DNA from: an uncultured virus (IMG/VR IMGVR_UViG_3300027743_000024)
Taxonomy: Duplodnaviria > Heunggongvirae > Uroviricota > Caudoviricetes
IMG/VR virus record: IMGVR_UViG_3300027743_000024
Direction: 5' to 3' (one strand)
DNA: 64,000 nucleotides
Part shown: in pieces, positions 12 to 48,805 of the stretch
Layout of the letters: each line of letters opens with the position of its first letter
How positions within the stretch are numbered: the first letter of the stretch is position 1
The notes under the pieces: model-generated
Databases searched by the model: none
Seen by the model: only the letters and a program-made list of their open reading frames with translations
Told to the model about the DNA's origin: nothing
Translations under genes and position numbers: made by a program

Positions 12-3000
12 TTAACTAACATCCATTAGCAATTCTTCTTTCTGTTTATCAAATTTAGGATTGCCAACTAATATAGTCTTTTTTTCTGACTCTTGCAACT
101 TTTCAGTAGATTCTTTAACACTAGTAGATGGTTGAGTAACAAACTCTTTAAATCCTTCTATGTCTTGTTTACTTCCTAATATATGAATTTGTTCTGGTTC
201 AAATACCACATATTCAGAATTATAAATATCATTAAATTCTTTATTTCTATTTAAATCTGAAAATCCGTAAACAGTATCATAATTAGAATTTTTAAAAACT
301 TTTCCTATATCTCCGTAATTTTGACCTCTTGTAATATTAACTTCTTTTATACTTTTAGAATTTAATAAACTGGGTATTATATTTTTACCATAATTTTCAG
401 CAGCTTTTTTAAACACACTAAAATATAATCCTTGTCCTTTATTTCTTTTACCTTCTTTAGTAAAATCAAATTTATCAAATTCAGCATCAGTACCATGATA
501 AACAATATCTTTTACTTGACTATCAGGAAATATAGTATCTAAGTATTGAGAGTATTGTTCAATTGTTCCTAATTTAGCTAATTCTGGATTAGATTCAAAT
601 AGTTCTGATACACCTTCTTTAACACTAGTAGATGTTTGAGTTTCACCTTTTTCTTCTTTAGTCATAAAATCAGATAAATATTTATTAGTAGTAATTATTT
701 TATTAGGATCAACTTTTGAAATAACTTTATTAATTTGATCTTTCCAATTTTTAGTGTCATATTTAGCTCCTCTTTCTTGTATTCTTCTTTCAAACTCAGC
801 ATCTGTAAGATTTATAACTTTGTCAAAAGAGTCTAAATTATTTTTTAATAATTCAGTATTAGATGTAAATAATATTTTATTTTCAGAAATAGCTTTTTGT
901 TTTGCAACATCAAACAGTTCCTGCATTATGGTATTATACTCTTTATTCCATACTTGAGATCCACCATCTTTAACTTGATAAGGAGTTACTTTATAAGTTT
1001 CAGCTATTTTATTTACTTTATTGTTTATCTCTGTAGAATAGTCGTCATCTAGTGATATAAATCTATTATCACCATCTTTCTTTAAAAAACTTTTTCCAAT
1101 AGTAGGATGTCCAAATACTATTTTATCTGATTTTTTTAATTGATCATTTCCACCTTCTTCTTTAGTCATAAAACTTTCTCCTTTTTTAAGAGCTTCTTCT
1201 ATAGCATCTAAAGACTGAGCACTTTTAGGAGCATTTGTTGCTTTACCAATTTTTGTAACTGCAGGTCCAAAATCTTCTTTCTGTGCAGCTTTTTCTGCTC
1301 TACTAGCTTTTATATTTTTAATTATATGCCAGCTAGCAATAGCTTCATTATAAGACTGTTTACTAAATGGACTAACTGTATCATAACCAAAAAATTCAAC
1401 TTCATTGTATTCTGCAGTTAATGCCCACTTCTCTGTATATGTTCCTATATCTGTTTTAAATAATTTAGATACTTTACCTATTTTAATTACAATGAATTCA
1501 GGGAATTTAAAATGCTTTCTAGTTCCAAAACTTTTTGCATCAAAACTTGTCCAGAAACTATCACTGCCAAATGCTTGTTTTTTATCTCCTTCTCTAAATG
1601 ATTCATTTGTATTATTTAAAAATTTAAATATTTCCTCAGCTTCAACAGAATTGTTTTTATCTGGATGGAATTTAAATGACAATGTTCTATATGCTCTTTT
1701 AGCATCTTTAATTGTACTGATTGAGTTAAAAACATTTGTTATAAATTCTTTAGCTTCATTAACATCTTTTGTTTCAAAAAGTTTAATGTCATCAAGTATT
1801 TTAATTAAGCTTTCTTCATCTTCAATTTTAACTTCAGCTTTTTCTTCAACTTTAATTTCTTTTACTTTTTCAGCTTTAGTAGGTTCTTCTCCAGGCATCA
1901 TGTCCTTAGATTCAAACCTCATTTCATTCATGTGTTTAACTTTATCAAAACTTTCATTTCCATTTTCATTATTAACACTGAATGTAACTTTACCATTTTC
2001 AAGAGTTACTGCACCATATTCTTTTGAATCTTTTTCAACAAATGCTTTAATTCCAAAAGCTTCTTGAGGCATCTTTCTTGTAAATCTCTTTTGAGTTGGT
2101 AAATAAGAGTTTAATATTTTTCTAAACTCTTCTGATTCAGAATTAAAACCATTTTCATCAGTCTTGTTTATTAAATTACTTAATACATTGTCAAGACCTA
2201 CAGAAACATTCTCAAACATGAATGGAGATATGTATTTAACAAAACTATCATTCTTAAACTCAAGGTTGTCTTTAGTTATTAGATATTGAAAACAATTAAC
2301 AGCAAAATCTCTTGTCTCTTCATTCATGTAAAGATCTTGAAATGAATTTACAATATCATTAATAGATTCTGCAGATAGCTTTATAAAAGACTTACCTGAA
2401 ACTCTATCAAATTCTATTTTGCCATCAACTTCAATTCCTTCTTCATTAAATTTAATCTCTGGTCTTAACCATTTAACAAATGCATTATTACTAATTCTTG
2501 GATTAGTAGAATTTTGCATTTCAATTAATTGTTTAGCAAGAGTTTTTTCTTTAAATTCAGAGAATAACAAGCTATCATTTGAAGGATTGAAATCTGGATT
2601 ACCTCTTTTTTTTTCTTTCATCCATTTAACATATGCTCTAGTTGTAACAAACCCTAAGAATGTTCTTTTAATCTCTCTTATTTCATCATTCTTTAATCCA
2701 GGTCTTAAGTTAGCCATTAGTGTTTTTAATGCTGCTTTAAATGGCTTTGTTTCAGAAACAAAAATAGCTTCTGAATGGTCTAATATTAATAAAGCTTTCT
2801 TAATATTTTCCATTAACAACTTATCTTCTAATATTGCACCATGTAAAATAAATGCAGGATTTTTTTCATTGATTTGCTCAAGTCCAAACATGCCAGATAG
2901 CATTAATCCATCTAAAGAATCTTTTATAGATTTCTCTGCATCAGTAAATGATGTTGGTAATCCTTTTGTTAATTTTATAAGGTTATTTAAATATTGAAAT

Positions 3001-6000
3001 GATTTAGCTTCTTCTTCAATTTGAAGAAACTTAACAAATGCCATAATATTTACATCTCTATTATTATCATTAACACCATTCTGAATAAGATCTTTAATAT
3101 TTTCTGTATTTACATCAGAGTATTTATACATCTTAATAAGTCTGTTTAAATTAACTTTTTCTTCTGTACCAACTATCTCTTGAAGAATTGCTTGCATCTT
3201 AATATCTCTAGAGCCTTTTTCTTCAGCTTGTGTCTTAATACCATACTTGTTCTCTTTTAACATCTGAGCATAAGCCTGAATACTTGGAGCATTTATAATT
3301 ACTGCTGCATCTTCTTCAGAAACTCCTAATGACAACATATAATTAAATGGACTTAATATCTCTAAAGATAATCCAATTTTACCAGCAATAGGATCTTTAG
3401 CATTATCTGTCATTATAGATAATACACTTGAAAGAACGTCTGCAATTCTCTTTTTTGATTTATTTATATAAGAGAATTTTTGAAGTTCTTGTCCATTAAC
3501 TGATAAGAATCTTCCAATTCTTCCTATGTCATTTTTAGCTAAGAATGCAAATGCTTGAATAGCATTAGCTGATGGACCAATACCTGCCTTACCTGCAGAG
3601 TTTTGAACAAAAGATTTAATCATACCAAGTAATGAGCTTGATGATTGTTCAATTTCATTGTAAGTACCTTTTAATGTCTGTATAACTTTTGCTACATTTT
3701 CTAATGATTCTGAAGAAACAGATGTTAATTGAATATCTTCCAATCCTTTATTTGTAAGCATTATTAATTGCTGATCTAATATATCATTATTAAGAGCATC
3801 ATTATTAAGGCCAGAAGTTAATGCATATTCATTTTTATTAGATGGTAGTCCAAAGAACTTCATTGTCTCAATTGTAATATCATTATCAATCTTTCTAAGC
3901 GCTTTCTTTTGCTCTTCAGTTTTATTCTTTGTAGCTTTTAATGTTGAGTAAACAAGACTATTAATCTTTCTGTCAATTAATTCAGCTTTAAACAATTTAT
4001 TTTTCTCTAAATAGCTTTTGTAACTAGACCACTTATCATCTAATGTTGTTTCTGTTCCTGCTTTAATAGCTTTACCATCTTTCATCCAAAAACTTGGTTG
4101 TTGTATAAATAAACTATCAATATCAAAATCCGCTCCAGATAACAATACTAATTCAGCAGGAAATATTCCAGATCCTTCAGCATAATTTGGCATTACATCT
4201 ACAACTCTTAAAGATGTCATAAATGACTTATCTTGTGTTGGAATTCTATATCCTAACATTGTTGCAACATCAACTGGGATTTCATCACCAATCTTTAAAC
4301 CAAACTTAGAGAATACTTTTTCTGATAATATACATTCAGAATACACTTGTCCTGTCACAGGATCTTTAACATTATGAAGAAGTTTTCTAACTTTATTTCC
4401 ATCATAAGCACCTCTGTTAGCTTTAACAGTTTTGTTCATTATTACTTTATTGTTTTTATCAACAACAACAAATGTATGAGCATCAGATACTAATGACACT
4501 TTAGTTCCAGGAACTTTCTGTGATAATACACCACTACCAAAATGAGCTAAAAATAATTGTTCAGCTTTATCAATTGCTGGCAATAAATTCCAGTTCAATT
4601 CAAATATTTGTAATAATTGCTCATCAGCTCCAGAAGCTTCTAATGCTTTTAGGAATTTTACTTTTAACTTGCTTGTATCAATAGCTTCAGAATCTCCAGC
4701 CTCTCTAACTTTACCACTTATATTTTTGATATAAGATTGAGCCATTTTAAAGCTGTTATCTCTAGTCTTAGCCATATTTGATCTGTAGCTAAGTCTTATA
4801 TCTCTTAATGTTTGAACAGATCCATCTGGCAATGTAACTTCAAATAAATCATTTTGTTCACTATCAATTAATTGCATTAATTGAGTTCCAGATGTAATAA
4901 CATTTTTACCTGTAGGAGTTTCAACTTGCAATCTTTTGTATCTATTAGGTATTTTTATCATAGACTTAGACAAGTCTAAATCTTTTGATAATGAATCTTG
5001 AGGAGTTAATGTATAACCTTTTGATGCAGATTCTGCAACAACTTGATCAATACCATTAATGTCCATTTGATTAAGAATCTTATGCAATTGTTCTTTACCT
5101 TTTATTGGAGAATAAAGTGCAACAAGTTTCTTATTTATTTTTATTAAATCTTCTCTAGAAAAATCTTCATTAAGTTCTGCTTTTTCAAGCTCATCCATTA
5201 ATTTATCATATTCAGCTTGATTATCAACATGACTAACCTCATGTCTATGAATAATAGATTCAGATGTTTTAATATAAAACTCTCTTCCAAATGTTACAGT
5301 TTTCCAAGGATTTAAACTAACTTGAGCACTTTCTAAAGCTTCTTGTTCTTTAGCATTAATTTCAATACCTCTTCTAACTTTATTAAGAATTGCTCTTATT
5401 TCATTAGTTCTTCTGCCAAGTCTTTTAGCCATAAATATAATATGGTTAATACTAGACAATGACTGAGCATCATTAGAGTTTATTTTAGATGTTCCATCTT
5501 TTTTATCTGTTCTAACAAGCTGACCATTTACTGGCAACTTTTCAACATAAACATTTATATCTTTAATAAAAGCAATTACATGTTCACCTTTCCCTAAGTC
5601 AGAACCAGAACCCATAGCTCCTTTATGTCTCTTAACAATATCAATTGCTAATTCTTGTTTTGGAGCCTCAACTTCAATTGCTGTAGCATCATCTTGTTTT
5701 GCTTCAGCTAATTTACCATTAACAAATGTGTATTTCATTAATGATCCATCACTGTATTTTTTAACTCCTTTATCATCTCTTGACAATGCATAATCACCAT
5801 CAAATAATTGATTTAATGAAAATGAATTAACATAATCATTAATATACATTTCTTTTAATTGTTGATCAAGTTCTTCTTTTGAAAGAGCTGCATCTTTATC
5901 TAATAAATGAGTTGGCAATGCATAGTTTGATTCTAATTTTCCATCTTTTAAACTTATCAATTTATTATTAGCAAGCATTTTTTTAAATGCAACTATTTGA

Positions 6001-9000
6001 CTTGTTAATGATTTCTTTAATGCTTCTTTTATTTCTGCTTTTAATTCTTCAGATATTTCTTTACCTTTTCTTGCAGACTCAGTTATTTCATTGTATTTTT
6101 CTGGACCAACAACACTTAACATGTTTGAGAACTCTGTAAATCTAAATGCTCTGCCTGTTTTAGAATCATTATATCCCTTAACATTGCCAAGTCCAGATTT
6201 ACTTTCTCTAGCTATTCTATTGTATTCTCCTTCAAAGAATGAATATACAGTGTCAACACCTTGAGTATTAACTTCACCATCTTCACCTATAAAGTTTCTA
6301 ATCTTCATAGTTGATGTATATGCAGTGTTTGAAGCCTCATTCTGTCTGAACAAAGTTTCAACCATACCCTTAGTTTGTGAAAACCAAAATCCAAGATGTT
6401 GTAATAAATACTCTCTTTCAGAAAAATCTCCAAACACTTTACCTTCATTAGTTGATCTTGTGTGATCTCTAATACCATCAATTAAATTAATAACTAAGCC
6501 ATTTAAAGTTGAATCATCTTTAAATAATATATTATCCTTTAGAATTTCATATTTATTCTTTAAAAATTCTCTATATGATGGATTGTTTTTAATTTTAAGT
6601 GCCTCATCTAATACATAACTTGGCTTAATAATATCATGCCTTGTATTGTTATCTGATCCCTTAAAGTTACTTGCAGCTAATGACTCATCAAACATACCAT
6701 TTGCTACAGCATATTTAGATATTGTAGCTCTAATACCAAATCCTTGTTTATCATAAGGATCTTTGTTATTAGACACTAAATTTAAAAATGTCATACCAGA
6801 AGAATCTGCTTTTAAGAATGATATATCTAATGGCTCTCTATCACCAAACATGTCCATGTCATTCTTTTGACTTTCAGATATTTTTGTTTTTGATTTTAAT
6901 AATGAATATCTTAAATATCCAGATGAAAAATCAAATCCAAGCATTCTAAATGCATCCTGAACTTTTACTATTTGAGCATCAAGTTGTTCATCAGATATTA
7001 AAACATCTTTGTTTTCATTAAACTCATCTATTACATTATTAACTCTTTCAGTCCAGAATGCTCTATCTGTTTGATTATTATTTCTTATGTTAATAAGACT
7101 GTTTGCCCATTTTTGTAATGATATTTTTTCAGCAGTATTTATATTTGCATTGTAAGTTTTAACTTTATTTGATGTTAACAAACCTGTTGAGAAATCATAC
7201 CTAGGCATAAACTCAGTGTGCAAGAATGTAACTTTAGCATTTTTAAATGCTGTTATAAACATTCTTAAGTCATTGTTATTTCTCATCTTAGATACCATAA
7301 CACCTTGACTATCATAACTAACTTGTGCATTAGACATAATCATATCTAAAACAGCTTTAGCCTGAGCATTATCTTTAGCATAAACAATAAACTTTTCAAT
7401 CATCTTGTCCTCATCTGTATTTGCTAATACATGTCCAATACCATTATATATGGTTGGTCCATCAACAGACACCATAACCTTTTGATTTGTAAGTTCATCT
7501 ATAGCTTCATACATTGCAAATGTAATCCATTCTCTCATTAATTTACTTGATGATTCTTCTAATGATATAGTCCAAGATTCTTGAGAACCAAATCCAGTTT
7601 CTCCACCTTTTTCATCATCATTGTATTTTGAATCTTCTTCACTTACATCATCTTTTTCAATTTTAAACATGTCAAGTTTCTTATTAACTTGTTCAGTTAA
7701 TAAACCTTTTGCAACTTCATTTCTAAGTGTGAATAATTCATCGTCAATTGATTTTTCCAGTTTTATAGCTAAAGCTTTGTCTTCTAATGAATCTATATAA
7801 TCATAACCAGAAGTTTCAAGTGCCTCAATTCTTTCTTCTATTAAATCTTCTAACACTTCATCTCTTTCAGGCTTTTCACCTTTACCATTCCAATTTGATA
7901 GAATGTATTTTGTTCTTGCAGCAAATGTATTAATCATCTTCTTAGACTTTGTAGAGTCTATAAAAGAATTTTCTCCTGCCATAAGATTTTTATATGCAGT
8001 TTCACTTACAAGAGTTTGCTTATTTGCAACAGCTTTAGTTGAACTAAATGCTCCTCTATCTATTTTTCCAAAGAAGGCATCTAATTTGTCATTCCCAGTA
8101 ATGTAATTGAATAGTCTAGTTAGTCTCTTAAACAACTGAATAAGTCCAACCTTGGTTGTTTTTGATGCCTCTTTAGCATTCTTTTTCCAAGCCATAAATC
8201 TATCAGCCATATGCTCTTCTAATAGTAAAGCATATATTTGATTTTGAGACAATTCAGCATAATCCATATTGGATGCTCTTAACTCATCCATTGCTTTGTT
8301 TATGTTTTCAGCTGTCTTGTATTTTGCAATTACTTCTTTTTCAGCAATTCTTAAATACATGTCAACTTCTTTATCAGATATTGCATATCTAAACACAGCA
8401 TGAAATGCCTCATGATATCCAGTACCAGAAGCAGATTGATTCCAAAGATAAATTACATTCTTTTTAAATGCACCCCATACAGTTCTGTTTTTAATTGTGC
8501 TTCTAATTATTCTTCTTAAATCTTTCTTAGTTTCTATTCTGATTCCTTCTGGAATCATTTCTTCTATTTCTTCTATTTCTTCTTTACTAATTAATTCATC
8601 AGCTATTCCATCAGACATTCTAGCTGCACCTGCATCATCAAGTTTAGGAGCTTGTGGTTTAGCATTTATTTGCTCAGCCTTTTTCCTTGCTCTTTCTTCT
8701 GCTTTTGTTTCAGTTTTTATTTCAGCAGCAACTGATTCAGATTGTTTAGCTTTAGCAGATGTTTTACCACCTTCTAAAGCAGCTAGTTCTGCGTCATATT
8801 TAGCATTAAGAGTATCTAATAATTCTTTTTCTGAATTAGCTAAAATTTGTTCTTTTTCTCCATTTTTATTTATATAAGTGCCATACCATTCTCCAGTCTT
8901 AATCCATTCATCTGAACCAGAAGGAGACATGCTATTTTCTGAATAACCATCATAATTATTTTCATCAGCAACTTCATCAGAAACAGTGGTTAAACTTCTT

Positions 9001-12000
9001 CTATTTTCTATTTCTTTCCCTTCTGGCGTTTGTTTTAATTTTTCTATATCAGCTTTAATATCTGTAGTAGGTGAAGAAGGTGTAGAAACAGGAGTTGCAG
9101 TAATAGGGGCCTCAACAAAATTACCATTTTCATCAAACATTCCAATGTCATTTGATTTAGCTGGTGTCACTGTAACTGTATCAACAGTTTTAATTGCTGC
9201 TGCAGTTTGATTCAATGTTATTTTAACATCTTGCTTGTCAATAACTTTTGGATCTGTATATGTTTGGAAACTTGTTCCTGGATCACCTTTAAAAGATTTT
9301 GAAATTGACTGTCTAAAAGATTTAACATCTAATGTTACAGACACTTTCTTTTTATTTAATTTAGATGTCAATTCAGCTAGCAATGCATCAGAAGTTGTAA
9401 TTGTTTTCATATCTGAATTTTTGATATGAACTTCACCATCAACCTTAACTACTTTTTTACCTCCAGGTGTTTTTTCAACATGAGAAACAATTGCTCTTAA
9501 ATCTCCATTAGGAGCTATACCAATTTTAACACTGATAGCTCCTTTACCCATGCTCTTGATGCTTTCTTTTGATACAGATATAAATAAACCATCAGATATT
9601 TCCTTGTTTAATTTATCAACTTCATCTTGAGTAACTTCTTTATTTACTACTTTATCTGAAATAGATCTTAACTTGTTAAATATTTCATTAACACTTTCTT
9701 GTCCAATTTCAATTGGTGAAACTGGAATAAACATTCTTTTACCAGACTTGTTTTTGAATGCAAGTATATATCTTCCAAGGCTTTTAAATTCTTGAGGCAA
9801 TACAGCATCTTCAGATGATTCTTTAATACCTGCACTAGAAATCATTACAGGTTCAGCACCAGCTTCTTGAGCTTCTGCAGTTTGCTGATCAAATATTACA
9901 TATGATCCATTTGTTTTTACAATGTCATTTAAGCTTGCAAGACTTACTGCTTTTTCAGACACTGCAACTCTTCCATTGCTTATATTAATACCAATACCAA
10001 GAGCTTTAACTGCTTTGTTATCTAATGCTGTTCCAGCTTTAATGCTGTTAATTATTTGATACATAACAGATTTAGGATCTAAATTATTAGGGAAATACCC
10101 TAATACATTGTCACCTATTTTAATTCTAACTGATTTACTAACAACTCCTTTGTTATCAGTATAATCAACAGCATCAATATAAATAATATCATTTATATCT
10201 TCTCCTTTTGCTTCTGATCTATCAATTATTTCTTGAACTTGATCAGAAGACAATAGCTCACCTTTAGTTAAACCAGATATTCTTTCTCTTTCAACATTGC
10301 TTTTAGATCCTGTTTTTGTATCAGGATACATATATATTTCTTCTGAAACATCTTTTGTTATAACTCCCTGTGGAACTTCAGTAACAACTTCAACTGCATT
10401 AATAACAGCTTTAGGTGCTTCAATTATTTTCATTTTAAAATCAGTTGATTCACCTCTAAGTGCATCATCTTCTTCTTTTGAAATTAAATCTTTTTTACCA
10501 GAAGTGTCATCAGCTCTATAGTATACACTATGAACTGGAGTTTCATTATCATCAAAACTTATGTTATGATTAACATCTGTAACAGTTACTTCTTGCTCTT
10601 TACCATTATGAGTTACAATAACTCTATCCCCAACTTTTACTGAATTCTTATCTACTTTTTTCTTTTCAGAAGTTGATGCTGCAGCTTCAGCATTCATTTG
10701 TGCATTCATTTCTGATTCAGAATCAAACTGTGCAGCTGCTTCTTCTCTTTTTTTTGTTTCTTCAGTTTGTTTTATAGCATTATCTTTTTCAACTTTTTCT
10801 TTAACTTGTTTATCATACCAAGCCTTTAATGTTTTATTATCTTTAATCTTTAGCAATTCATTATATTTTGCTGTTATTTCTGATAAGTTAACATTGTTGA
10901 TTAAATATTCTTTATTTTTATTTGATTGGTCAACAGAAGATTCTGGCAAGTCTTTTTCTGACATACCATTTAATGAAAGTATTTCTTCTTTTCTTTTATT
11001 TAATTCAGCAAGTTTTGCTCTTGCAATTTTTAATCTTGATTCTAAATTATATGTTTTACTAAGTTTATTATCATCAACTGTATTTTCAATTGCATTTACA
11101 ATTTTCTCTTGATGGCTAATTAAATTACTAATATTTTCTACTGTTTCAACAACTCCTAATTGCTTAGAGTTTCTTTCTATAGCCATTGTTGAATAGAACA
11201 ATTCTGATTTTGCTTTAGCAAGCATAACCTTTTGTTCTGGAGATGTAAACATTCCTAAGAATCCATTAGGATCTATGTTTTCTAAATGATCCTCTACTTC
11301 TTTATATTTATTGTAAGCATTAATTATATTGTTAACCTCTTCTCCTGCTTGTTCATCAGACATTAAAGGCTGTCCTTTTTCATCTTTATTATCTTTTAAA
11401 TTTCTAACTCCTTCTAAAAGAAAATTAACTGTACCATTTTCAAAATGCTTTTTATATAATTCATCCTTTAATTTAAAAATCTTTTCATCAACATTTGCTA
11501 TTCCACCAGTTTTTAAATCTTTAGATGTTTGTACATATGTATTTATGTCTTTAGCTATTCTAACGCTTGCTCCAATTCCTGAACCTATCATGCCAAGTAA
11601 TCCACCTGCTTCAGCAGCAGCTTGAAATTCTTCATTTTCAGAATATCTTCCACCCATATTTGATTCACCACTTCCCATATAAGGAAGAGAATAGTTAATA
11701 GACTTAAATGTATCTTCTGAATCAGTTAATAGATTTTGCATAAAACCTTTATCTTCATATTGATTAAGATTTAATGCTTTATCAAATTGTCTTTGACCAG
11801 CTGCATATTGCAATCCTTCTTCAAGCTTTTCTCCTGTTCCACCTAAATATGCAAACCCTGCAGTTTTACCAAGTCTTGAATATTTGTTGTATCCTCCAAG
11901 TCTTTCTGCTCCTTTAAAAAATGAACTACCTTTAAACAATGAACTACCAATCATCATTTCAATTCCATCCATTGCAAGAAGTGACATGTTCTCTTTTTCA

Positions 12001-12980
12001 AGATCATCAATACCTTTCATTGATTGAATTCTGATTTGTCTTAAATCATATTCTGAAGGTTGAGGTCCATTAGGATCACCTGTTGGGTTGTATTTTTCAA
12101 ACCAATTTTGTGTTAATTTATTTTTTGCATTTTCAACATTATCTCCTTTTTCAGACATTGTTTCACCATGTCTTGCGCTCCACAATAATGCAATTTGAGT
12201 TGCTGCTGTAAGAGCTGCTGTAACTGGAACGGTTATTTCTGCTGCAGGACCTCCCATTAAACCTTCTGCTGCACCAGTAACTGCAGCTGCGGCTATTTTA
12301 TCTATTGCTTTTTTACCAAATGTAGCAACTAATTGTTGTGCTGCCATTGCACCCATTGATCCAACTCCAGAAGAAAATGTATAAGACATAGCTTCTCCAA
12401 TACCAGCTTTAGCACCTTTAGAATTAACTAAAGCCTCATTTAATCTATATGCCTTAGAAACATATTCACTTTCAATTTCTTGAGCATTTGTTTCAACTCC
12501 TTCTTTTGCATCATCTCTTTCTTTTTCTGCAGCAGCATTTTCTTCATCTATTTTAGATGTTATTTCATTAAGTTTAGCATCATCTATTTTACCAAGTCTT
12601 CTTGCTTTTATCCAATCTTCTCTTAAGTTTTCATTGTTATCAATAATAAGTTGATTGTCATTTACTTTGCTTTGGTATGAAGATTTTTGTGTGCTATCCC
12701 ATGCAGTTTTTAAGCTGTTTAACATACTTTCACTATGAGCTTGAGTTAAGTCCTCATTCTTTAGTGTATTCTCTTCTGATAAATTAACAGACTGATCAGG
12801 CTTAACAAACCCAGAAAACTCTTGTCTACCAATACCTTGAGATACAGGCTCTCCTAGAATATCATTAAGCATTCTGTCAGTTTTTGACACAATATCTTCA
12901 GATGCTTCTGGAGTTGGAGTTTCTTTATTATTTTCTTGATTGTTATTATTACGTATCTGATCTAGTATGTTATTTAGCAT
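12..12980 (-). CDS. Virion-packaged RNA polymerase polyprotein (crAss-like two-barrel vRNAP) with zincin-like, J-domain, P-loop and ART-like accessory domains
   Basis: 4322 aa; catalytic GADFDID motif (4116-4130) preceded by YRIPTQ; HEAFH zincin motif (8400-8414); FHPDK J-domain motif; GHPTIGKS P-loop; YHGT...GLYFS ART-like motif; located after cargo genes as in crAss-like phages. Confidence 0.9.
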   Translation of the reverse strand: MLNNILDQIRNNNNQENNKETPTPEASEDIVSKTDRMLNDILGEPVSQGIGRQEFSGFVKPDQSVNLSEENTLKNEDLTQAHSESMLNSLKTAWDSTQKSSYQSKVNDNQLIIDNNENLREDWIKARRLGKIDDAKLNEITSKIDEENAAAEKERDDAKEGVETNAQEIESEYVSKAYRLNEALVNSKGAKAGIGEAMSYTFSSGVGSMGAMAAQQLVATFGKKAIDKIAAAAVTGAAEGLMGGPAAEITVPVTAALTAATQIALLWSARHGETMSEKGDNVENAKNKLTQNWFEKYNPTGDPNGPQPSEYDLRQIRIQSMKGIDDLEKENMSLLAMDGIEMMIGSSLFKGSSFFKGAERLGGYNKYSRLGKTAGFAYLGGTGEKLEEGLQYAAGQRQFDKALNLNQYEDKGFMQNLLTDSEDTFKSINYSLPYMGSGESNMGGRYSENEEFQAAAEAGGLLGMIGSGIGASVRIAKDINTYVQTSKDLKTGGIANVDEKIFKLKDELYKKHFENGTVNFLLEGVRNLKDNKDEKGQPLMSDEQAGEEVNNIINAYNKYKEVEDHLENIDPNGFLGMFTSPEQKVMLAKAKSELFYSTMAIERNSKQLGVVETVENISNLISHQEKIVNAIENTVDDNKLSKTYNLESRLKIARAKLAELNKRKEEILSLNGMSEKDLPESSVDQSNKNKEYLINNVNLSEITAKYNELLKIKDNKTLKAWYDKQVKEKVEKDNAIKQTEETKKREEAAAQFDSESEMNAQMNAEAAASTSEKKKVDKNSVKVGDRVIVTHNGKEQEVTVTDVNHNISFDDNETPVHSVYYRADDTSGKKDLISKEEDDALRGESTDFKMKIIEAPKAVINAVEVVTEVPQGVITKDVSEEIYMYPDTKTGSKSNVERERISGLTKGELLSSDQVQEIIDRSEAKGEDINDIIYIDAVDYTDNKGVVSKSVRIKIGDNVLGYFPNNLDPKSVMYQIINSIKAGTALDNKAVKALGIGINISNGRVAVSEKAVSLASLNDIVKTNGSYVIFDQQTAEAQEAGAEPVMISSAGIKESSEDAVLPQEFKSLGRYILAFKNKSGKRMFIPVSPIEIGQESVNEIFNKLRSISDKVVNKEVTQDEVDKLNKEISDGLFISVSKESIKSMGKGAISVKIGIAPNGDLRAIVSHVEKTPGGKKVVKVDGEVHIKNSDMKTITTSDALLAELTSKLNKKKVSVTLDVKSFRQSISKSFKGDPGTSFQTYTDPKVIDKQDVKITLNQTAAAIKTVDTVTVTPAKSNDIGMFDENGNFVEAPITATPVSTPSSPTTDIKADIEKLKQTPEGKEIENRRSLTTVSDEVADENNYDGYSENSMSPSGSDEWIKTGEWYGTYINKNGEKEQILANSEKELLDTLNAKYDAELAALEGGKTSAKAKQSESVAAEIKTETKAEERARKKAEQINAKPQAPKLDDAGAARMSDGIADELISKEEIEEIEEMIPEGIRIETKKDLRRIIRSTIKNRTVWGAFKKNVIYLWNQSASGTGYHEAFHAVFRYAISDKEVDMYLRIAEKEVIAKYKTAENINKAMDELRASNMDYAELSQNQIYALLLEEHMADRFMAWKKNAKEASKTTKVGLIQLFKRLTRLFNYITGNDKLDAFFGKIDRGAFSSTKAVANKQTLVSETAYKNLMAGENSFIDSTKSKKMINTFAARTKYILSNWNGKGEKPERDEVLEDLIEERIEALETSGYDYIDSLEDKALAIKLEKSIDDELFTLRNEVAKGLLTEQVNKKLDMFKIEKDDVSEEDSKYNDDEKGGETGFGSQESWTISLEESSSKLMREWITFAMYEAIDELTNQKVMVSVDGPTIYNGIGHVLANTDEDKMIEKFIVYAKDNAQAKAVLDMIMSNAQVSYDSQGVMVSKMRNNNDLRMFITAFKNAKVTFLHTEFMPRYDFSTGLLTSNKVKTYNANINTAEKISLQKWANSLINIRNNNQTDRAFWTERVNNVIDEFNENKDVLISDEQLDAQIVKVQDAFRMLGFDFSSGYLRYSLLKSKTKISESQKNDMDMFGDREPLDISFLKADSSGMTFLNLVSNNKDPYDKQGFGIRATISKYAVANGMFDESLAASNFKGSDNNTRHDIIKPSYVLDEALKIKNNPSYREFLKNKYEILKDNILFKDDSTLNGLVINLIDGIRDHTRSTNEGKVFGDFSEREYLLQHLGFWFSQTKGMVETLFRQNEASNTAYTSTMKIRNFIGEDGEVNTQGVDTVYSFFEGEYNRIARESKSGLGNVKGYNDSKTGRAFRFTEFSNMLSVVGPEKYNEITESARKGKEISEELKAEIKEALKKSLTSQIVAFKKMLANNKLISLKDGKLESNYALPTHLLDKDAALSKEELDQQLKEMYINDYVNSFSLNQLFDGDYALSRDDKGVKKYSDGSLMKYTFVNGKLAEAKQDDATAIEVEAPKQELAIDIVKRHKGAMGSGSDLGKGEHVIAFIKDINVYVEKLPVNGQLVRTDKKDGTSKINSNDAQSLSSINHIIFMAKRLGRRTNEIRAILNKVRRGIEINAKEQEALESAQVSLNPWKTVTFGREFYIKTSESIIHRHEVSHVDNQAEYDKLMDELEKAELNEDFSREDLIKINKKLVALYSPIKGKEQLHKILNQMDINGIDQVVAESASKGYTLTPQDSLSKDLDLSKSMIKIPNRYKRLQVETPTGKNVITSGTQLMQLIDSEQNDLFEVTLPDGSVQTLRDIRLSYRSNMAKTRDNSFKMAQSYIKNISGKVREAGDSEAIDTSKLKVKFLKALEASGADEQLLQIFELNWNLLPAIDKAEQLFLAHFGSGVLSQKVPGTKVSLVSDAHTFVVVDKNNKVIMNKTVKANRGAYDGNKVRKLLHNVKDPVTGQVYSECILSEKVFSKFGLKIGDEIPVDVATMLGYRIPTQDKSFMTSLRVVDVMPNYAEGSGIFPAELVLLSGADFDIDSLFIQQPSFWMKDGKAIKAGTETTLDDKWSSYKSYLEKNKLFKAELIDRKINSLVYSTLKATKNKTEEQKKALRKIDNDITIETMKFFGLPSNKNEYALTSGLNNDALNNDILDQQLIMLTNKGLEDIQLTSVSSESLENVAKVIQTLKGTYNEIEQSSSSLLGMIKSFVQNSAGKAGIGPSANAIQAFAFLAKNDIGRIGRFLSVNGQELQKFSYINKSKKRIADVLSSVLSIMTDNAKDPIAGKIGLSLEILSPFNYMLSLGVSEEDAAVIINAPSIQAYAQMLKENKYGIKTQAEEKGSRDIKMQAILQEIVGTEEKVNLNRLIKMYKYSDVNTENIKDLIQNGVNDNNRDVNIMAFVKFLQIEEEAKSFQYLNNLIKLTKGLPTSFTDAEKSIKDSLDGLMLSGMFGLEQINEKNPAFILHGAILEDKLLMENIKKALLILDHSEAIFVSETKPFKAALKTLMANLRPGLKNDEIREIKRTFLGFVTTRAYVKWMKEKKRGNPDFNPSNDSLLFSEFKEKTLAKQLIEMQNSTNPRISNNAFVKWLRPEIKFNEEGIEVDGKIEFDRVSGKSFIKLSAESINDIVNSFQDLYMNEETRDFAVNCFQYLITKDNLEFKNDSFVKYISPFMFENVSVGLDNVLSNLINKTDENGFNSESEEFRKILNSYLPTQKRFTRKMPQEAFGIKAFVEKDSKEYGAVTLENGKVTFSVNNENGNESFDKVKHMNEMRFESKDMMPGEEPTKAEKVKEIKVEEKAEVKIEDEESLIKILDDIKLFETKDVNEAKEFITNVFNSISTIKDAKRAYRTLSFKFHPDKNNSVEAEEIFKFLNNTNESFREGDKKQAFGSDSFWTSFDAKSFGTRKHFKFPEFIVIKIGKVSKLFKTDIGTYTEKWALTAEYNEVEFFGYDTVSPFSKQSYNEAIASWHIIKNIKASRAEKAAQKEDFGPAVTKIGKATNAPKSAQSLDAIEEALKKGESFMTKEEGGNDQLKKSDKIVFGHPTIGKSFLKKDGDNRFISLDDDYSTEINNKVNKIAETYKVTPYQVKDGGSQVWNKEYNTIMQELFDVAKQKAISENKILFTSNTELLKNNLDSFDKVINLTDAEFERRIQERGAKYDTKNWKDQINKVISKVDPNKIITTNKYLSDFMTKEEKGETQTSTSVKEGVSELFESNPELAKLGTIEQYSQYLDTIFPDSQVKDIVYHGTDAEFDKFDFTKEGKRNKGQGLYFSVFKKAAENYGKNIIPSLLNSKSIKEVNITRGQNYGDIGKVFKNSNYDTVYGFSDLNRNKEFNDIYNSEYVVFEPEQIHILGSKQDIEGFKEFVTQPSTSVKESTEKLQESEKKTILVGNPKFDKQKEELLMDVS

Positions 12981-12981
12981 A

Positions 12982-13539
12982 TTATTTTAATTCCTTTAAT
13001 TTATTATTAAATGTGTTTAAGTAATCTTTAATTGGAACATTCTTTGGAACCTTCTTCTCTCTTGATTGTATTGAATCATTAACAGCTTGTTGAGCTTTAT
13101 CATAATCTGGTTTACCAGTTAAAGCTTTTGAATCATTCAAGCTCTTTAAATAAACATCAGCATCTCCTGCTCCTAAATAATGTGTTAACATCATTAATGT
13201 TTCATCTGGAACATTAAGATTGTATTTAGATTTATATTGAGCTACATTAGCTTTATATTGTTGTCCTAAATAATTTTGATATTTTTCTTGAGCTGATGGA
13301 TTATTTAAATAATCTTCTCTAGTTTTAACTCCAGTTATTTCTTCTATTTTAGATATTTTTTGATTTTTATTGGGCTCACCATGTATGCTCCATATATGCT
13401 GGTATTTACCTGTTGCAGTACTTCCAGGATTATCTTCAGGCTTATAATTATTTCCAGATTCAGTACCTCCAACTACATTGTTAAACCTATCTATTGTTAC
13501 ATCCCCAGAGGATTGCTGTTGTCCTGCTGGGTTGACTGC
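12982..13539 (-). CDS. Lysozyme/lytic-transglycosylase-like domain, -1 frameshift extension of the 786-aa cargo protein
   Basis: Frame open from the GGGAAAG site to 12982 with no start until 13194; translates GGTESGNNY...STATGKYQ...THYLGAG, matching lysozyme-like ES / GxYQ / Y-x-G motifs. Confidence 0.75.
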   Translation of the reverse strand, partial: AVNPAGQQQSSGDVTIDRFNNVVGGTESGNNYKPEDNPGSTATGKYQHIWSIHGEPNKNQKISKIEEITGVKTREDYLNNPSAQEKYQNYLGQQYKANVAQYKSKYNLNVPDETLMMLTHYLGAGDADVYLKSLNDSKALTGKPDYDKAQQAVNDSIQSREKKVPKNVPIKDYLNTFNNKLKELK

Positions 13540-15857
13540 TTTCCCATGCTTGACCCTCCTGCTTCTCCTCCTTGAGAACCACTTGGATACATTACATTAT
13601 AAGCATCTGGATCTGTAAGCCTTAGTTTAATTTGAAACAACACTTTTGCTTTATCAGCCTTGCTCATTTTTTTATCTTCTAACACTTGAACTTTTGCCAA
13701 GTTTAATGCTGTTTGTTCTTTCTGACTTGGAGCAGCTATTTTTTGACCTGTTTGAGGGTCTACATATTTTCCAGACATTATATCATTATAATCTTTATCA
13801 AAATTTGTTATTGTTTGATCAGGATTAGCTTCAAATTGTTTTTGGAATTTGTTTGCTTTTTTCTCTAGCTTATATAAATACAATTGGCTATTAACTTCTT
13901 GCGTTTGCTGAGGAACAACTCCTGCAACCCATTGATGATATCCACCAGCCATATTAGATGTTACATTTCTTACTGCATTTTCTGTATTTTGACCCATTAC
14001 TGGAGTTGTAATATGAAATACATAACCTTCAACTGCAACATCTTCTCCTTGTGCATTTGTTTTATGCAATGTGTGTGGATGTATTAAACCTTGCTTTTCA
14101 AGTTCTTCAAATCCACCTCCAGGTAAAATATCATTATCTGGAGAAATGGTTCTCATTTGCTCTGTAGATGCAAATACATCTCCACTAAGTAATGAGTTTC
14201 CAATATCATCTCCAGTAAAATTCTTTCCAGCTGCTGGCATAAAAGTAATTTCTCCTTTTATGTTATTTAACATTGAATTCATTAATGATATTGATTCAGC
14301 GTCACCAATTTTATCTATTTTTGCATTTATATCTTTATCATCTAAATCAACATCAGCTTTTGCTGCATCTTTTTTCAATTGAATATATCTTGGATCTTTT
14401 TCATTTATACTTGCAAATTTGTTTTTATAGTATTCAGTTTTTTCAAATTCTTTTTCATCCATAACTCTTTCTTTGCCTGTTCTTGAATCATACTCAACAT
14501 ACTGAGCCTCCATTTGCATAAGCCCTGAATTTCTTCCAGGTCTTTTTGAGTATATTTTTTCAGAATAATTAGGTCCAGATCCAGTAATATATTTTGCATC
14601 TAAATTATTTCTTGCTTCAGCCTGAGACTCTGGTAAAACTTTTAATAATTCTGCGTTTTCTTTTTTAATTTGAATCTCTTTTGCTTTTAAAGGGATTGTT
14701 CTTCCAATTAATGCATTTTCTTCAGCTTGTTCAGGAGTGTTTCCAGCATTGCCAACATTTAAATAAAAATCTCTTCCAGTTGCATTTACAGTTACATGAC
14801 CACTTTTATCTGATGTTCCACCAATAATTGCAGCAGCTTGATCTCCATTTACCATTGCTCCTCCAGTTTCATGAGCTTCTCTAACAATGTTTAAAGTTGG
14901 ATTATCTACAGGACCAGCCTCTTTCTTTGTTCTACCACCACCTCCACCACCAGTAGAGTCATCTTTAGGAACTTTAGTTGTGTATAAAAGTTTTTGTGTC
15001 TCAGTTTCTTCTCTTTTTGTTTTTAAATAATTGTCAACAAATATATCTAATGGATCATTATTATCATCCCACTGAGAACCTTTTTCAATAACATTACCAT
15101 TTTCATCTAAAATGTCTTTACCAAATATTTGCTTATGCCTAAGCTTATTATAACCAAATGGATCAAGAGCTCTAAAGCTTGCATCATTCATTAATGGCTG
15201 TGCAATTTTCCTAAGCTCATCTCTTGTTACATTTCTTACAATTTTAGTTCCATTTTGTATATAACTTATTGATCCATCTGGATTAAACTGTTTTTCAAGT
15301 GATCCATCTGGATTAATTTGCTGTTCAATTACATCTTGTATTTGATCATAATAAGGCTTAAATATTTTTTGTGTATCAGGAGGAGCCATTGCAGCATAAT
15401 GATCAGCTGTAAATGGTTTATCAGTAACTTGATTATATTCTCCTTTATCATAATCAAAATAATCTTGAGCAACTTGTCTGTCTTTATCTGCAGTTATAAT
15501 TGCATCTGCACCAGCACTTAATGTTTTATCAGTTAATATACCTTGATAATATGGATTTGCTTCTAATTGATTTTTATATGCTTTAATTTTATTTTTAACT
15601 TGACCATAATCTTTTGTCTCAACAGCTTCATCAACAACACTTTTTAGGAAATTGTTTTTCTCATTCTCTAGTCCTTGAGCAACAGTTTTTGTACTATTTC
15701 CACCAGTTATTACTGGAGCATCAGCAACTGCTGCCATAGCATCATCATATTTCTTTTGCTGTTCTTTGTAGCCAAGTTCTATTTCTTTTAAAGGAAGAGG
15801 CACATATGAGCTTACCCAAGGTTGTTGATCATATGTTTTGTCAAATCTATTTGCCAT
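13497..15857 (-). CDS. Virion cargo/ejection protein (786 aa)
   Basis: ORF between cargo protein 1 and vRNAP; N-terminal YVPLP motif; gene order typical of crAss-like phages. Confidence 0.6.
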   Translation of the reverse strand: MANRFDKTYDQQPWVSSYVPLPLKEIELGYKEQQKKYDDAMAAVADAPVITGGNSTKTVAQGLENEKNNFLKSVVDEAVETKDYGQVKNKIKAYKNQLEANPYYQGILTDKTLSAGADAIITADKDRQVAQDYFDYDKGEYNQVTDKPFTADHYAAMAPPDTQKIFKPYYDQIQDVIEQQINPDGSLEKQFNPDGSISYIQNGTKIVRNVTRDELRKIAQPLMNDASFRALDPFGYNKLRHKQIFGKDILDENGNVIEKGSQWDDNNDPLDIFVDNYLKTKREETETQKLLYTTKVPKDDSTGGGGGGRTKKEAGPVDNPTLNIVREAHETGGAMVNGDQAAAIIGGTSDKSGHVTVNATGRDFYLNVGNAGNTPEQAEENALIGRTIPLKAKEIQIKKENAELLKVLPESQAEARNNLDAKYITGSGPNYSEKIYSKRPGRNSGLMQMEAQYVEYDSRTGKERVMDEKEFEKTEYYKNKFASINEKDPRYIQLKKDAAKADVDLDDKDINAKIDKIGDAESISLMNSMLNNIKGEITFMPAAGKNFTGDDIGNSLLSGDVFASTEQMRTISPDNDILPGGGFEELEKQGLIHPHTLHKTNAQGEDVAVEGYVFHITTPVMGQNTENAVRNVTSNMAGGYHQWVAGVVPQQTQEVNSQLYLYKLEKKANKFQKQFEANPDQTITNFDKDYNDIMSGKYVDPQTGQKIAAPSQKEQTALNLAKVQVLEDKKMSKADKAKVLFQIKLRLTDPDAYNVMYPSGSQGGEAGGSSMGKQSTQQDNSNPLGM
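13504..13559 (-). promoter_or_regulatory. -1 programmed ribosomal frameshift signal
   Basis: In-frame G GGA AAG (13545-13539), 7-nt spacer, hairpin CCCAG-C-AGGA/TCCT-CTGGG (13531-13504), GGAGG 9 nt upstream. Confidence 0.75.
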
Positions 15858-23125: not shown

Positions 23126-23869
23126 TTAAGAGTTTATATTTCTTCTTTCTTTTCTACCTAAGTTAATAAAGCTTCTGTCGTACTCATTAGTGAGCGGTAA
23201 CATTCTTCTCCATACATTTTTAAGTCTTTCCATTTGAGCAACATTAGGCATGTTTGCAGCACCTTTAGCAGCAGCTACATAGAACAACCACTCTTTCTCA
23301 GACTCATCTTTAATCTTGTCTGCAATCTTTCCCTTTCTCCAATCTTGTCTATCTAACATATAAGTTATATATGCTGTAATTGCTTTTGCAAAATAAACAT
23401 CATCTGGAATCATTGGAAATCCTTCTTCATCAACTGGCATTCCTAAATATACAATACAAACATTTGTTGGATTAAGAACAACTATATTTGTTTGTGTACT
23501 TGTTTTAATATTTGTAATTAAATAATTATCATTTAAATAAAATGTGTAATCACATTGGTTTGTATTACACACAGGTATCTGACATTCACTACACTGATAG
23601 TTTGATGCATTAGTATTGTTTGCCCAATGCATAGGAATTCCTTTATAGTTAATTGCAACTAGCTTGTAGAAATTACATGGTAGTTTAGCTTTACCATCTA
23701 CAAGTTCTATACAATCACTTGTTGATTCATATTGAGAATAAGCTCCAATTAAGTTCAGCCCTTCTGCAGCCCATTCAACCATTGAACTAAGTGGAATCTC
23801 TTCATTGATTCCAAGGTCACGGTAAACCTTTGCTAATATTACATTGAGAGAAATATATCCTGATATCAT
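23126..23869 (-). CDS. Tail ring/adaptor protein
   Basis: 247 aa; DEEGFPMIPD motif; directly upstream of muzzle gene. Confidence 0.7.
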   Translation of the reverse strand: MISGYISLNVILAKVYRDLGINEEIPLSSMVEWAAEGLNLIGAYSQYESTSDCIELVDGKAKLPCNFYKLVAINYKGIPMHWANNTNASNYQCSECQIPVCNTNQCDYTFYLNDNYLITNIKTSTQTNIVVLNPTNVCIVYLGMPVDEEGFPMIPDDVYFAKAITAYITYMLDRQDWRKGKIADKIKDESEKEWLFYVAAAKGAANMPNVAQMERLKNVWRRMLPLTNEYDRSFINLGRKERRNINS

Positions 23870-25981: not shown

Positions 25982-26452
25982 TTATATAATTGGATATCCT
26001 TCTAAATCTTTTTTAAGTAATTTTATCTCTGCTAATTTATGATTGAAAGTTTGCTCAAAATGAGGGGTGTCTATTATTGATTTAAAATCTCCTCCCCAAG
26101 TCCAACCATGAGATTTAAATACAGCAACAACTTCCATCCAATCTTTCTTACCATCTTTGTCTACATCTTCAGTCATTGACCAAGAAATGCTTCCATCATT
26201 GTGTAATAAGCAGAAGTCTACAGCAAGTCCATAATTATGCATAGAATCTCCACCTTTAGCTTTTGTAACTATATTGCCTGGCCTTGTTCTTCCTTGTGCA
26301 TACAAATTGTTTTGTTCTTCAATAGTTCTCAGGCCCTGAGTTATCCTGATGTTAATTCCTTTTGATTGTATTTCTAAAAGAATACTAGCACATTCACTTC
26401 TTAGTTTAGGATGAATTTTTGCAATTCTAGATATTGAAACTTTATCACTCAT
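25982..26452 (-). CDS. Endolysin, M15 family L-alanyl-D-glutamate peptidase
   Basis: GLRTIEEQ..LYAQGRT, SMHNYGLAVDF, WGGDF..D.PHFE motifs. Confidence 0.9.
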   Translation of the reverse strand: MSDKVSISRIAKIHPKLRSECASILLEIQSKGINIRITQGLRTIEEQNNLYAQGRTRPGNIVTKAKGGDSMHNYGLAVDFCLLHNDGSISWSMTEDVDKDGKKDWMEVVAVFKSHGWTWGGDFKSIIDTPHFEQTFNHKLAEIKLLKKDLEGYPII

Positions 26453-39913: not shown

Positions 39914-40441
39914 TTATAAATAATCTTTTAATTCATGGTCAAGTAGTCTCATAGCTATTTTGTCTTCTCCAAATGCTTCTAACTGGTCAATTAAGTTTTG
40001 AATCTTTCCTAGCTCTTCTTGTTGCTCTTGTAGGAATTTAATTGCTAATTGATGAAGCAAGTGATTACTCATCTTTAATGCATGTGTAGCTAATTCATTG
40101 CATTGCTTTGTAATAACTATCTCATGGTCATATGACTTTCTGATAATGTCAGGCAATCCTTCAAATGATCTCATTGGTTCTTTTAATGCTGGTGTATTAG
40201 GTTGTATACCCATATCTAATAGATATTCCTTTGCCCATGATGCATGAACCATTTCTCCATCTGAATCCTTCTGCCAAAGTTTAGCAGCATTTAAATACCC
40301 TTTATTATTTAACCACAATGACATTGCATGGTATATCCTGCTTGAATATTCTTCTTGTTCAATTCTAAAGTTTAATATATCAATGCATTCTTTTGATGTA
40401 AATGGGTTCTTTCCTTTTGGTGTAAATTTTGGTGTTATCAT
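39914..40441 (-). CDS. ftnA: Non-haem ferritin (FtnA-like)
   Basis: EEYSSRIY, EMVH, HEIVIT, EQQEE ferroxidase-centre motifs with ferritin spacing. Confidence 0.85.
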   Translation of the reverse strand: MITPKFTPKGKNPFTSKECIDILNFRIEQEEYSSRIYHAMSLWLNNKGYLNAAKLWQKDSDGEMVHASWAKEYLLDMGIQPNTPALKEPMRSFEGLPDIIRKSYDHEIVITKQCNELATHALKMSNHLLHQLAIKFLQEQQEELGKIQNLIDQLEAFGEDKIAMRLLDHELKDYL

Positions 40442-46875: not shown

Positions 46876-47029
46876 TTATCTTCCTTTGTAACTTCTGCTG
46901 ATATTTTATTATCAATGCATATGTTATATATCAATGTTGCTAACTTATCAAAGTCTTCACACTTGATTTTAATTTTGAATTTCTCTTTTGAGCTTTCAAA
47001 TGCTATTTCAAATGTTTCTTCCATCATCC

Positions 47030-47266
47030 TTATTTTAATAAATTAATTGCTTCATGCTCAGAGAATATCTGAATTGTTGGTTCTAGTTTCTTAACTCTTA
47101 ATTCTATAGTCTCAGCCCATTTAGCTTGGCCTTGAATCACTTCTTTCATTTCATCTATAATAATATAAGCCGTCTTTAATCTTGCTTCTAGTTCAATTAT
47201 AACACCAGCCAGGTTTAATCCTTTTTCTGAGCTATGTCTTGAAAATATATCATTTCCTTTTTCCAT
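47030..47266 (-). CDS. Hypothetical coiled-coil protein
   Basis: 78-aa ORF, coupled to upstream gene. Confidence 0.5.
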   Translation of the reverse strand: MEKGNDIFSRHSSEKGLNLAGVIIELEARLKTAYIIIDEMKEVIQGQAKWAETIELRVKKLEPTIQIFSEHEAINLLK

Positions 47267-47547
47267 TATTTTTCACTTGTTATTAGTATTTGGTGAAGAG
47301 CCTTTGCCATTGTATCAACCAATATCTCATCTCTATCTAAAGCATCATATCCTAAACTTTCAAACATGCAGTGCATTAGTTCATGTAAATAGACTTGCTC
47401 CTTCTGTTCTTGCGTAAGACTCTTCTTAATCTTAATAGTATTCTTTGACGCATCATGTTCTCCCCAACTACCCTCTTTATCAATTTTAACAACTTGTCTC
47501 ACTTTATATGTTTGACCAAATATCTGAAACTTTTTAGGAATTACCAT
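47266..47547 (-). CDS. Small zincin-like metallopeptidase
   Basis: YLHELMH (HExxH) motif followed by a downstream Glu. Confidence 0.65.
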   Translation of the reverse strand: MVIPKKFQIFGQTYKVRQVVKIDKEGSWGEHDASKNTIKIKKSLTQEQKEQVYLHELMHCMFESLGYDALDRDEILVDTMAKALHQILITSEK

Positions 47548-47809
47548 ATCTGAATCCTTTCACTTCTATATGTCCTGTAATTCTTTCCATTTCCTCATAT
47601 TTATGATTAACTTTAAAATACTCTCCATCAGACTTAATCATACACCATCTTTTGCTTGGTGTGCCTTTTGAATTCATGTATTCTTCAATTAATATTTCTG
47701 TAGATTCAAACTGTTTCTTTGACTGTACATTCCTTTTAATTAACTTCTGCTTACCATTCTTATCTGGCTTACCATATATATCATTCAGCACTTGCAGAGT
47801 TATTTTCAT
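47534..47809 (-). CDS. Hypothetical protein
   Basis: 91-aa ORF in packed operon. Confidence 0.55.
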   Translation of the reverse strand: MKITLQVLNDIYGKPDKNGKQKLIKRNVQSKKQFESTEILIEEYMNSKGTPSKRWCMIKSDGEYFKVNHKYEEMERITGHIEVKGFRYGNS

Positions 47810-47821
47810 ATTATTATTCCT

Positions 47822-48769: not shown

Positions 48770-48805
48770 TGTATTATAATAAAATGTATTATTGATGTAT
48801 ATATC

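Follow-up and report, generated by a model that had tools for sequence, protein, structure and literature searches.

A conserved, predicted -1 frameshift site would append a putative lytic transglycosylase domain to a large cargo-position protein of environmental crass-like phages

Phage lambda itself uses the heptamer G_GGA_AAG for -1 frameshifting, and in Escherichia coli dnaX a Shine-Dalgarno (SD)-like element stimulates slipping. The heptamer G_GGA_AAG is reported to be highly shift-prone in E. coli and has been named as a g-t shift site (PMC5009743). How crassviruses pass through the cell wall is not known; in phage crAss001, gp45 and gp46 are virion cargo proteins which, according to the structural atlas of that phage, are expected to exit first and form a channel (PMC10172136). 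Here we analysed a stretch of 64,000 nucleotides (nt) of DNA from an uncultured virus (IMG/VR record IMGVR_UViG_3300027743_000024; the whole stretch is hereafter called the window), in which a gene for a 786-amino-acid (aa) protein, situated where crAss001 encodes gp46, is very probably subject to programmed -1 ribosomal frameshifting at G_GGA_AAG, judging from its sequence and that of its relatives. The shift would extend the protein at its C terminus by a putative lytic transglycosylase domain. A frameshift-tied, wall-cutting domain would be a concrete and testable entry enzyme for environmental crass-like phages, and the frameshift offers a means of setting its copy number.

The slippery site, the hairpin and their conservation

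The features of the junction are listed below.

13497..15857, minus strand: 0-frame gene for the 786-aa protein (P0001), with its stop TAA at 13499-13497
13539..13545, minus strand: slippery heptamer G_GGA_AAG in X_XXY_YYZ phase, proposed -1 shift site
12982..13545, minus strand: -1 frame extension (P0002), 187 codons counted from GGG, then a stop at 12984-12982
13504..13531, minus strand: GC-rich hairpin, proposed frameshift stimulator, in which CCCAG-bulge-AGGA pairs with UCCUCUGGG
13555..13572, minus strand: two copies of AGGAGG (13560-13555 and 13572-13567), the proximal one 9 nt 5′ of the heptamer
12985..13500, minus strand: lytic-transglycosylase-like domain, residues ~16-187 of the extension, with the proposed catalytic Glu29 at 13461-13459
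12982..13194, minus strand: 70-aa open reading frame (ORF) whose start is an internal Met codon of the domain

The first G of GGGAAAG is the third position of a codon of the 786-aa ORF (atG GGA AAG). The heptamer lies within the last 16 codons of that gene, and the 0-frame stop TAA 15 codons past it. The -1 frame is already open 17 codons 5′ of the heptamer and continues for 185 codons after GGG AAA (187 if counted from GGG); it holds no ATG, GTG or TTG before the ATG at 13194, 117 codons past the heptamer. The predicted trans-frame product would comprise residues 1-773 of the gene followed by 185 residues, 958 aa in all. A first-pass annotation, made from the letters of the window alone, had described an in-frame G GGA AAG at 13545-13539 in a GC-rich patch, followed by a 7-nt spacer and a hairpin, with a -1 frame open for 185 codons and lacking a start until 13194, and all of these were present as described. 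The 70-aa ORF is an artefact of ORF listing and no separate gene.

In the window as a whole GGGAAAG occurs nine times compared to 4.4 expected, a count of at least nine being reached in 2 of 100 shuffles; the heptamer by itself is within chance, and evidence from the window alone is weak. Genes contain five copies on their coding strand, of which that at 13545-13539 alone has all three of a slippery phase, an extended -1 frame and a strong fold. A second in-phase GGGAAAG, at 23327..23333 (minus strand) in the gene for ring protein 1, is followed by seven open -1 codons and a fold of -8.1 kcal/mol, and is probably incidental. The signal at the end of the 786-aa gene rises above chance because it is conserved in relatives.

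The domain, and not the signal, served as the query in the search for relatives. Viral contigs yielded one locus with a single protein as query and two with an alignment (A1), and metagenome contigs yielded 12 with a second alignment (A2, built from full-length domains); viral contigs searched with A2 gave six, of which one was new, three were already known and two were L010 over all 6567 bases. Ten distinct close loci resulted (the window, L002, L004, L005, L006, L007, L008, L009, L010 and L025), with domains 43-65% identical to that of the window, together with seven more distant loci (L011-L017) at 27-36% identity. In all ten close loci the heptamer was in phase, the ORF upstream was long (720-790 codons if complete) and the domain lay in the -1 frame. 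The heptamer was G_GGA_AAG in nine and G_GGA_AAA in L025, such that positions 1-6 were invariant and position 7 was G in 9/10. The 0-frame stop followed 14-17 codons past the heptamer in every locus, and the -1 frame opened 0-17 codons before it and ran for 176-654 codons, giving an overlap of 52-100 nt. In heptamer-anchored flanking columns from -21 to +13, none was identical in more than eight of the ten loci except one A at -12, and the codon before GGA encoded M, V, E or S, always ending in G. In L010 the heptamer is also the very point at which the -1 frame opens, and in L005 and L009 the opening is one codon earlier, so that these loci leave almost no alternative place for a change of frame.

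The upstream proteins fell into two BLASTP groups (window/L002/L007 and L004/L005/L009/L010/L025), between which there was no BLASTP match at E values up to 0.01. Direct comparison of the 786-aa protein with the L004 and L005 proteins returned nothing significant; with that of L005 there was a weak N-terminal match and another, not significant at E 0.56, over the final 17 residues, which are the cassette. By hhalign only the N-terminal ~100 residues of these proteins could be linked (probability 79%, E 1.6e-5). With upstream proteins otherwise unlinked and the cassette shared, the cassette is far better conserved than the gene that it ends. The 786-aa protein had no tblastn match in 50,697 phage records and no relative in a pattern search of viral contigs. 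Its three database homologues (432-1376 aa range) were 786, 776 and 778 aa long and all ended in ..GKQ..NPLGM; an in-frame fusion to the domain was found in none of the three. Among the 150 representatives listed, none had a BLASTP-detectable part in common with the upstream proteins, except for a match between the L010 protein and P0091 (E 4e-4).

A hairpin was predicted at the same place in all ten loci, as would befit a frameshift stimulator. In the window it has nine pairs and one bulge, starts after the 7-nt spacer and lies in a GC island (GC fraction 0.44-0.50 at 13450-13599 compared to ~0.3 in the surroundings); the 53 nt past the heptamer fold with -12.5 kcal/mol, within the most stable 3.9% of 819 windows from the same 10 kb. 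Across the loci, the stem started 4-7 nt past the heptamer and the 53 nt folded with -12.5 to -24.2 kcal/mol, placing the hairpins among the most stable 0-3.9% of windows in their own locus (≤0.6% in eight of the ten), at a local GC fraction of 0.40-0.60 versus 0.28-0.35 for the loci overall. The outer five to six stem pairs, CC(C/U)CAG with CUGGGG, were nearly invariant, and inner pairs varied by locus at equal depth (A-U, G-U, G-C, C-G and U-A), a comparison that is descriptive only. The arms sit in differing registers across loci and in four of them derive from different segments, the 3′ arm in L004, L005, L010 and L025 being a more distal segment than elsewhere. We also observed that the 0-frame tail past the heptamer follows the peptide pattern GK..PQ..(D/N/G)PLG in all ten loci. 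The bases of this tail are those of both hairpin arms, so that peptide and RNA constraints are inseparable here.

The motif (A)GGAGG stood exactly 9 nt 5′ of the heptamer in four of the ten loci (window, L002, L007 and L025), which include both groups of upstream proteins, and it encoded Gly-Gly in all four. The proximal AGGAGG may act as an SD-like enhancer, or may merely be Gly-Gly codons. With 16 copies compared to 11.75 expected, AGGAGG is no rarity in the window, and its mere occurrence carries no significance. The leaders of genes in the window are A/T-rich, and just 5/31 contain even a 4-base SD core, against a background of 10%, which fits a host that initiates translation without SD pairing. 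The first-pass annotation had suggested that the upstream GGAGG may be irrelevant, given the rarity of SD pairing in Bacteroidota; the exact 9-nt spacing in four loci means that this dismissal was perhaps premature.

A putative lytic transglycosylase in the -1 frame

The extension contains the motifs ES (residues 29-30), GKYQ (46-49) and HYLG (122-125), which the first-pass annotation had placed upstream of and across the 70-aa ORF and which were found there. In a six-sequence alignment E29, G46, K47, Y48, Q49, H122 and G125 were invariant; in a 60-sequence alignment E29 and S30 were at least 90% conserved and G46, Y48, Q49, H122 and G125 invariant. An AlphaFold2 model built with the 60-sequence alignment (predicted local distance difference test, pLDDT, 93.8; predicted template modelling score, pTM, 0.88; below 50 only at residues 1-7) has a lysozyme-like alpha-helical fold, and the corresponding profile matched phiKZ gp144 (E 5e-8), with the ES, GxxQF and HFxG stretches aligned. 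The assignment of Glu29 depends on the gp144 residue that we take to be catalytic. Fold and profile matches to lytic transglycosylases support the lysozyme-like domain that had been proposed earlier. It is likely a diverged member of the lytic-transglycosylase (goose-lysozyme/SLT) fold with its catalytic Glu in place, and as such would be expected to cut peptidoglycan. Neither Pfam nor PHROG had a family for the window domain in a single-sequence search, PDB had no match to the six-sequence profile, and the curated Pfam models SLT (PF01464) and Transglycosylas (PF06737) did not match the window domain; PF06737 gave hits under its curated cut-off, with E values of 2.6e-4 to 6e-3, in 7 of 38 distant relatives.

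The nearest proteins among 1.84 billion representatives were only 62-132 aa long (P0009, P0010, P0011 and P0015), started at internal Met residues and were without ES and GKYQ. These truncated calls suggest further loci of the same kind. They also illustrate a problem of annotation, in that gene callers either miss the domain or call truncated pieces of it, such as the 70-aa ORF of the window. In L004 (3501-5465) and L009 (2977-4764) the -1 frame extends over 654 and 595 codons, and a frameshift product would there hold the transglycosylase-like domain plus ~400-470 more residues; Pfam had no family for these C-terminal continuations.

In other lineages, the domain occurred in frame. In all seven distant loci (L011-L017) it lay inside ORFs with their own starts. 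It was found at residues ~66-233 of giant proteins of 3001-4950 aa (P0016, P0020 and P0038), which share regions with the giant protein of the window (E 1e-20 to 2e-7) and for which Pfam had no family; inside a protein of L014 related to the 936-aa protein encoded next to the 786-aa gene (E 2e-6); N-terminal to a bona fide crAss_CARG1 domain in P0028 (E 1.1e-27); and at the C terminus of a 495-aa hypothetical protein of Leptolyngbya phage Lbo-JY46 (PP438436.1; L001 4885-6372; 31% identity, E 1e-9), the sole domain match among 50,697 phage records. These in-frame occurrences make the frameshift form one of several ways of tying this module to large virion proteins. A further idea, which we regard as doubtful, is that slippery site, hairpin and transglycosylase domain form one portable recoding module that was grafted onto the 3′ ends of barely related cargo-position genes. 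If so, each virion would hold a fixed small count of wall-cutting copies, AGGAGG 9 nt upstream would boost slipping via 16S rRNA in some lineages even with hosts that do not initiate by SD pairing, and the anti-SD of elongating ribosomes would have to be accessible in such hosts.

Proposed mechanism, alternatives and gene context

We postulate that the GC-rich hairpin 7 nt downstream would pause ribosomes translating the 786-aa gene at G_GGA_AAG, with GGA in the P site read by tRNA-Gly and AAG in the A site read by tRNA-Lys. A fraction would then re-pair one base back, on GGG_AAA, in a tandem slip. The first-pass annotation had taken the resulting hydrolase to be sub-stoichiometric, but the hairpin could also make shifting frequent. 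Non-shifting ribosomes would terminate 15 codons on and release the 786-aa protein, and those that slip would translate 185 more codons into a 958-aa protein with a transglycosylase domain related to phiKZ gp144 at its C terminus. The same pair of products had been proposed in the first-pass annotation, and it is supported by the presence of the cassette in 10/10 loci and, in 8/10, by the absence of any ATG, GTG or TTG ahead of the catalytic Glu. Going by gene order, the carrier would be packed in the virion and ejected ahead of the DNA, by which the enzyme would be delivered to the periplasm and would open the peptidoglycan at infection, comparable to the N-terminal transglycosylase of T7 gp16.

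Several points weigh against this proposal. The hairpin of the window is modest (shuffle z -1.9, and ~0 when longer flanks are folded); the outer pairs also encode P-Q and L-G in the 0 frame, and so are no proof alone of a structural constraint; and when nine junctions were aligned with MAFFT and folded with RNAalifold, no more than a trivial stem of 3 pairs emerged and the hairpin was not recovered. A second tRNA-Lys makes A_AAG less slippery. About half of bacteria have only a single tRNA-Lys and the others have a second (PMC5009743), and the host of this phage may be among the latter. None of the 24 listed runs with window DNA is an RNA run. The carrier matches neither the cargo models nor gp46 (see below). 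Finally, L002 has an ATG 19 codons past the heptamer and L005 a TTG 29 codons past it, both before the catalytic Glu.

These two starts are what would be expected if the domain were made independently, from a non-canonical or internal start or by re-initiation past the 0-frame stop, with the heptamer irrelevant, and gene callers did call such ORFs (for example P0008 and P0012). Yet the other eight loci have no ATG, GTG or TTG until 36-119 codons past the heptamer, beyond the catalytic Glu, and in the window an ORF from 13194 would be without the ES and GKYQ motifs. Start positions vary, whereas the heptamer is kept, and the -1 frame is open back to it, in all ten loci; we therefore consider independent production quite improbable. 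Recoding by another route, through RNA-polymerase slippage or a shift elsewhere in the overlap, appears very improbable. Other in-phase X_XXY_YYZ heptamers do exist (AAAGGGC in L004, GGGGGGA in L006, GGGTTTG and TTTGGGG in L010), but none is common to two loci, and the -1 frames that open at the heptamer (L010) or one codon before it (L005, L009) argue for the conserved site. The longest homopolymer runs there are 3-4 bases, compared to the ~9 named for transcriptional slippage (PMC5009743).

Two further alternatives would have the -1 frame unexpressed or the two frames one. The -1 ORF could be a decaying remnant severed from a neighbouring gene, and the domain has evidently moved in evolution, as distant relatives carry it in frame in neighbouring genes (at the N terminus of the giant protein or in a C1-like protein). 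A remnant is not expected, however, to retain its frame, its motifs and an upstream heptamer over such divergence: the frame is intact in all ten loci at 43-65% identity, the motif residues are invariant and the domain is modelled with high pLDDT, making decay extremely improbable. A sequencing or assembly error would look alike, since one base lost or gained by the G/A run would split a true single ORF of 958 aa, and our check was made on contigs, not raw reads. The chance of this is practically negligible given that the same frame layout recurs in ten distinct loci from separate assemblies, and that contigs of two other runs (X2 and X3, neither the likely source run) are identical over the junction, with no difference and no gap, in answer to the concern over an indel raised in the first annotation; a further run, X4, had no contig spanning it. 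The three database homologues of the 786-aa protein, moreover, all stop at the 0-frame stop, and the 150 representatives argue in the same direction, the weak L010-P0091 match aside.

The carrier was assigned its place by gene order. In the window this is ring protein 1, muzzle protein (1444 aa), a 936-aa protein, the 786-aa protein, the extension and a 4322-aa giant protein; the counterparts in crAss001 are gp43, gp44, gp45 (C1), gp46 (C2) and gp47, which puts the 786-aa gene in the position of cargo protein 2. Neither PF25712 (crAss_CARGO2) nor PF25725 (crAss_CARG1) matched the 786-aa protein, eight of its relatives or the 936-aa protein at E values up to 0.1, and as controls the cargo models matched gp46 (E 6e-219) and gp45 (E 2e-66). 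Alignment of the 786-aa protein with gp46 by hhalign gave a probability of 0.1%. With no match to a cargo model and gene order alone to go by, 'cargo protein' is a designation by position, as is the earlier label 'virion cargo protein'. By analogy with crAss001, a role as ejected cargo seems plausible and is the reading that we somewhat favour.

Two neighbouring genes bear on the proposed role.

12..12980, minus strand: gene for the 4322-aa giant protein, with its ATG 1 nt past the stop of the extension
25985..26452, minus strand: gene for a 156-aa Peptidase_M15_4/VanY protein (Pfam)

The M15 peptidase (26452..25985) is the likelier endolysin, in which case the phage would have a second, separately encoded wall enzyme; this fits an entry role for the frameshift-attached domain. 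Two domains were recognised near the C terminus of the 4322-aa giant protein, ART-PolyVal ADP-ribosyltransferase at residues 4159-4265 (E 1.6e-8) and DnaJ at residues 3756-3803. By its Pfam matches to Crass_capsid (E 7e-121), to ring proteins 1, 2 and 3/4 and to the muzzle protein (E 8.5e-149; ~27% identical to gut crassvirus muzzle proteins), the window is DNA of a crass-like phage, and the runs in which this DNA occurs are freshwater and sediment metagenomes. A 175-aa protein with a ferritin-like domain (E 1.7e-18) is encoded at 39917..40441 (minus strand), within the structural module between portal-side genes and the capsid gene. From 46900 to 62000 (~15 kb) both strands are filled with small ORFs, ~40 in number and 60-120 aa long, in what resembles an early-gene region. 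A recoded genetic code at 47-62 kb, a part with few long ORFs, was ruled out: translation table 11 fills the region with ORFs of 60-120 aa, and there was no sign of stop-codon reassignment in 46900..62000. ARAGORN identified one tRNA-like gene at 55157..55229 (plus strand), its anticodon undetermined (displayed as 'ca').

Comparison with known recoding and wall-degrading systems

The closest parallel to the proposed arrangement is the G/G-T pair of phage lambda, in which a gene of the virion module likewise yields, through a -1 slip close to its 3′ end, a short and a C-terminally extended product in a fixed ratio. Lambda extends its protein with a chaperone domain, whereas here a ~780-aa protein of a podovirus-like crass phage would gain an enzyme domain. 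The lambda frameshift is not known to need a downstream hairpin; a conserved downstream hairpin is a feature of the present loci. The G and G-T products are absent from lambda virions (PMC5009743), in contrast to the packaged carrier that we propose. In E. coli dnaX (A_AAA_AAG, with an SD-like element and a stem-loop) an X_XXA_AAG heptamer is likewise followed a few nt downstream by a stem-loop, and here (A)GGAGG takes the place of the SD-like element in 4/10 loci; the element is thus not universal in these loci, and the gene starts of the phage in the window show no SD. In dnaX the shift leads to a stop one codon on and to the shorter product, while in these loci it would lead to the longer one.

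As to the enzyme, T7 gp16, an internal core and ejection protein, has its transglycosylase domain at the N terminus and in frame, whereas here the domain is C-terminal and would be reached by frameshifting only; no sequence similarity of the extension domain to T7 gp16 was detected. The domain is 14% identical to phiKZ gp144, which is made as a protein apart, without any frameshift, and has a peptidoglycan-binding domain of its own. The phiKZ virion protein gp181 carries a gp144-like domain. In crAss001 the gene order is the same as in the window (ring, muzzle, two proteins, then giant RNA-polymerase-associated protein or proteins), although the 786-aa and 936-aa proteins match neither the C1 nor the C2 model. 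The crAss001 structural atlas proposes a channel formed by the cargo proteins, and the words peptidoglycan, lysozyme and transglycosylase are absent from its main text (PMC10172136).

Our literature search, which did not extend to subscription journals, turned up no description of a transglycosylase attached by frameshifting in crass-like phages. The mechanism itself is textbook, and its use here is new as far as we found. Compared to the tail-chaperone and capsid genes, the usual places where phage frameshifts are searched for, the present loci add a well-conserved case of predicted -1 recoding in a different type of gene.

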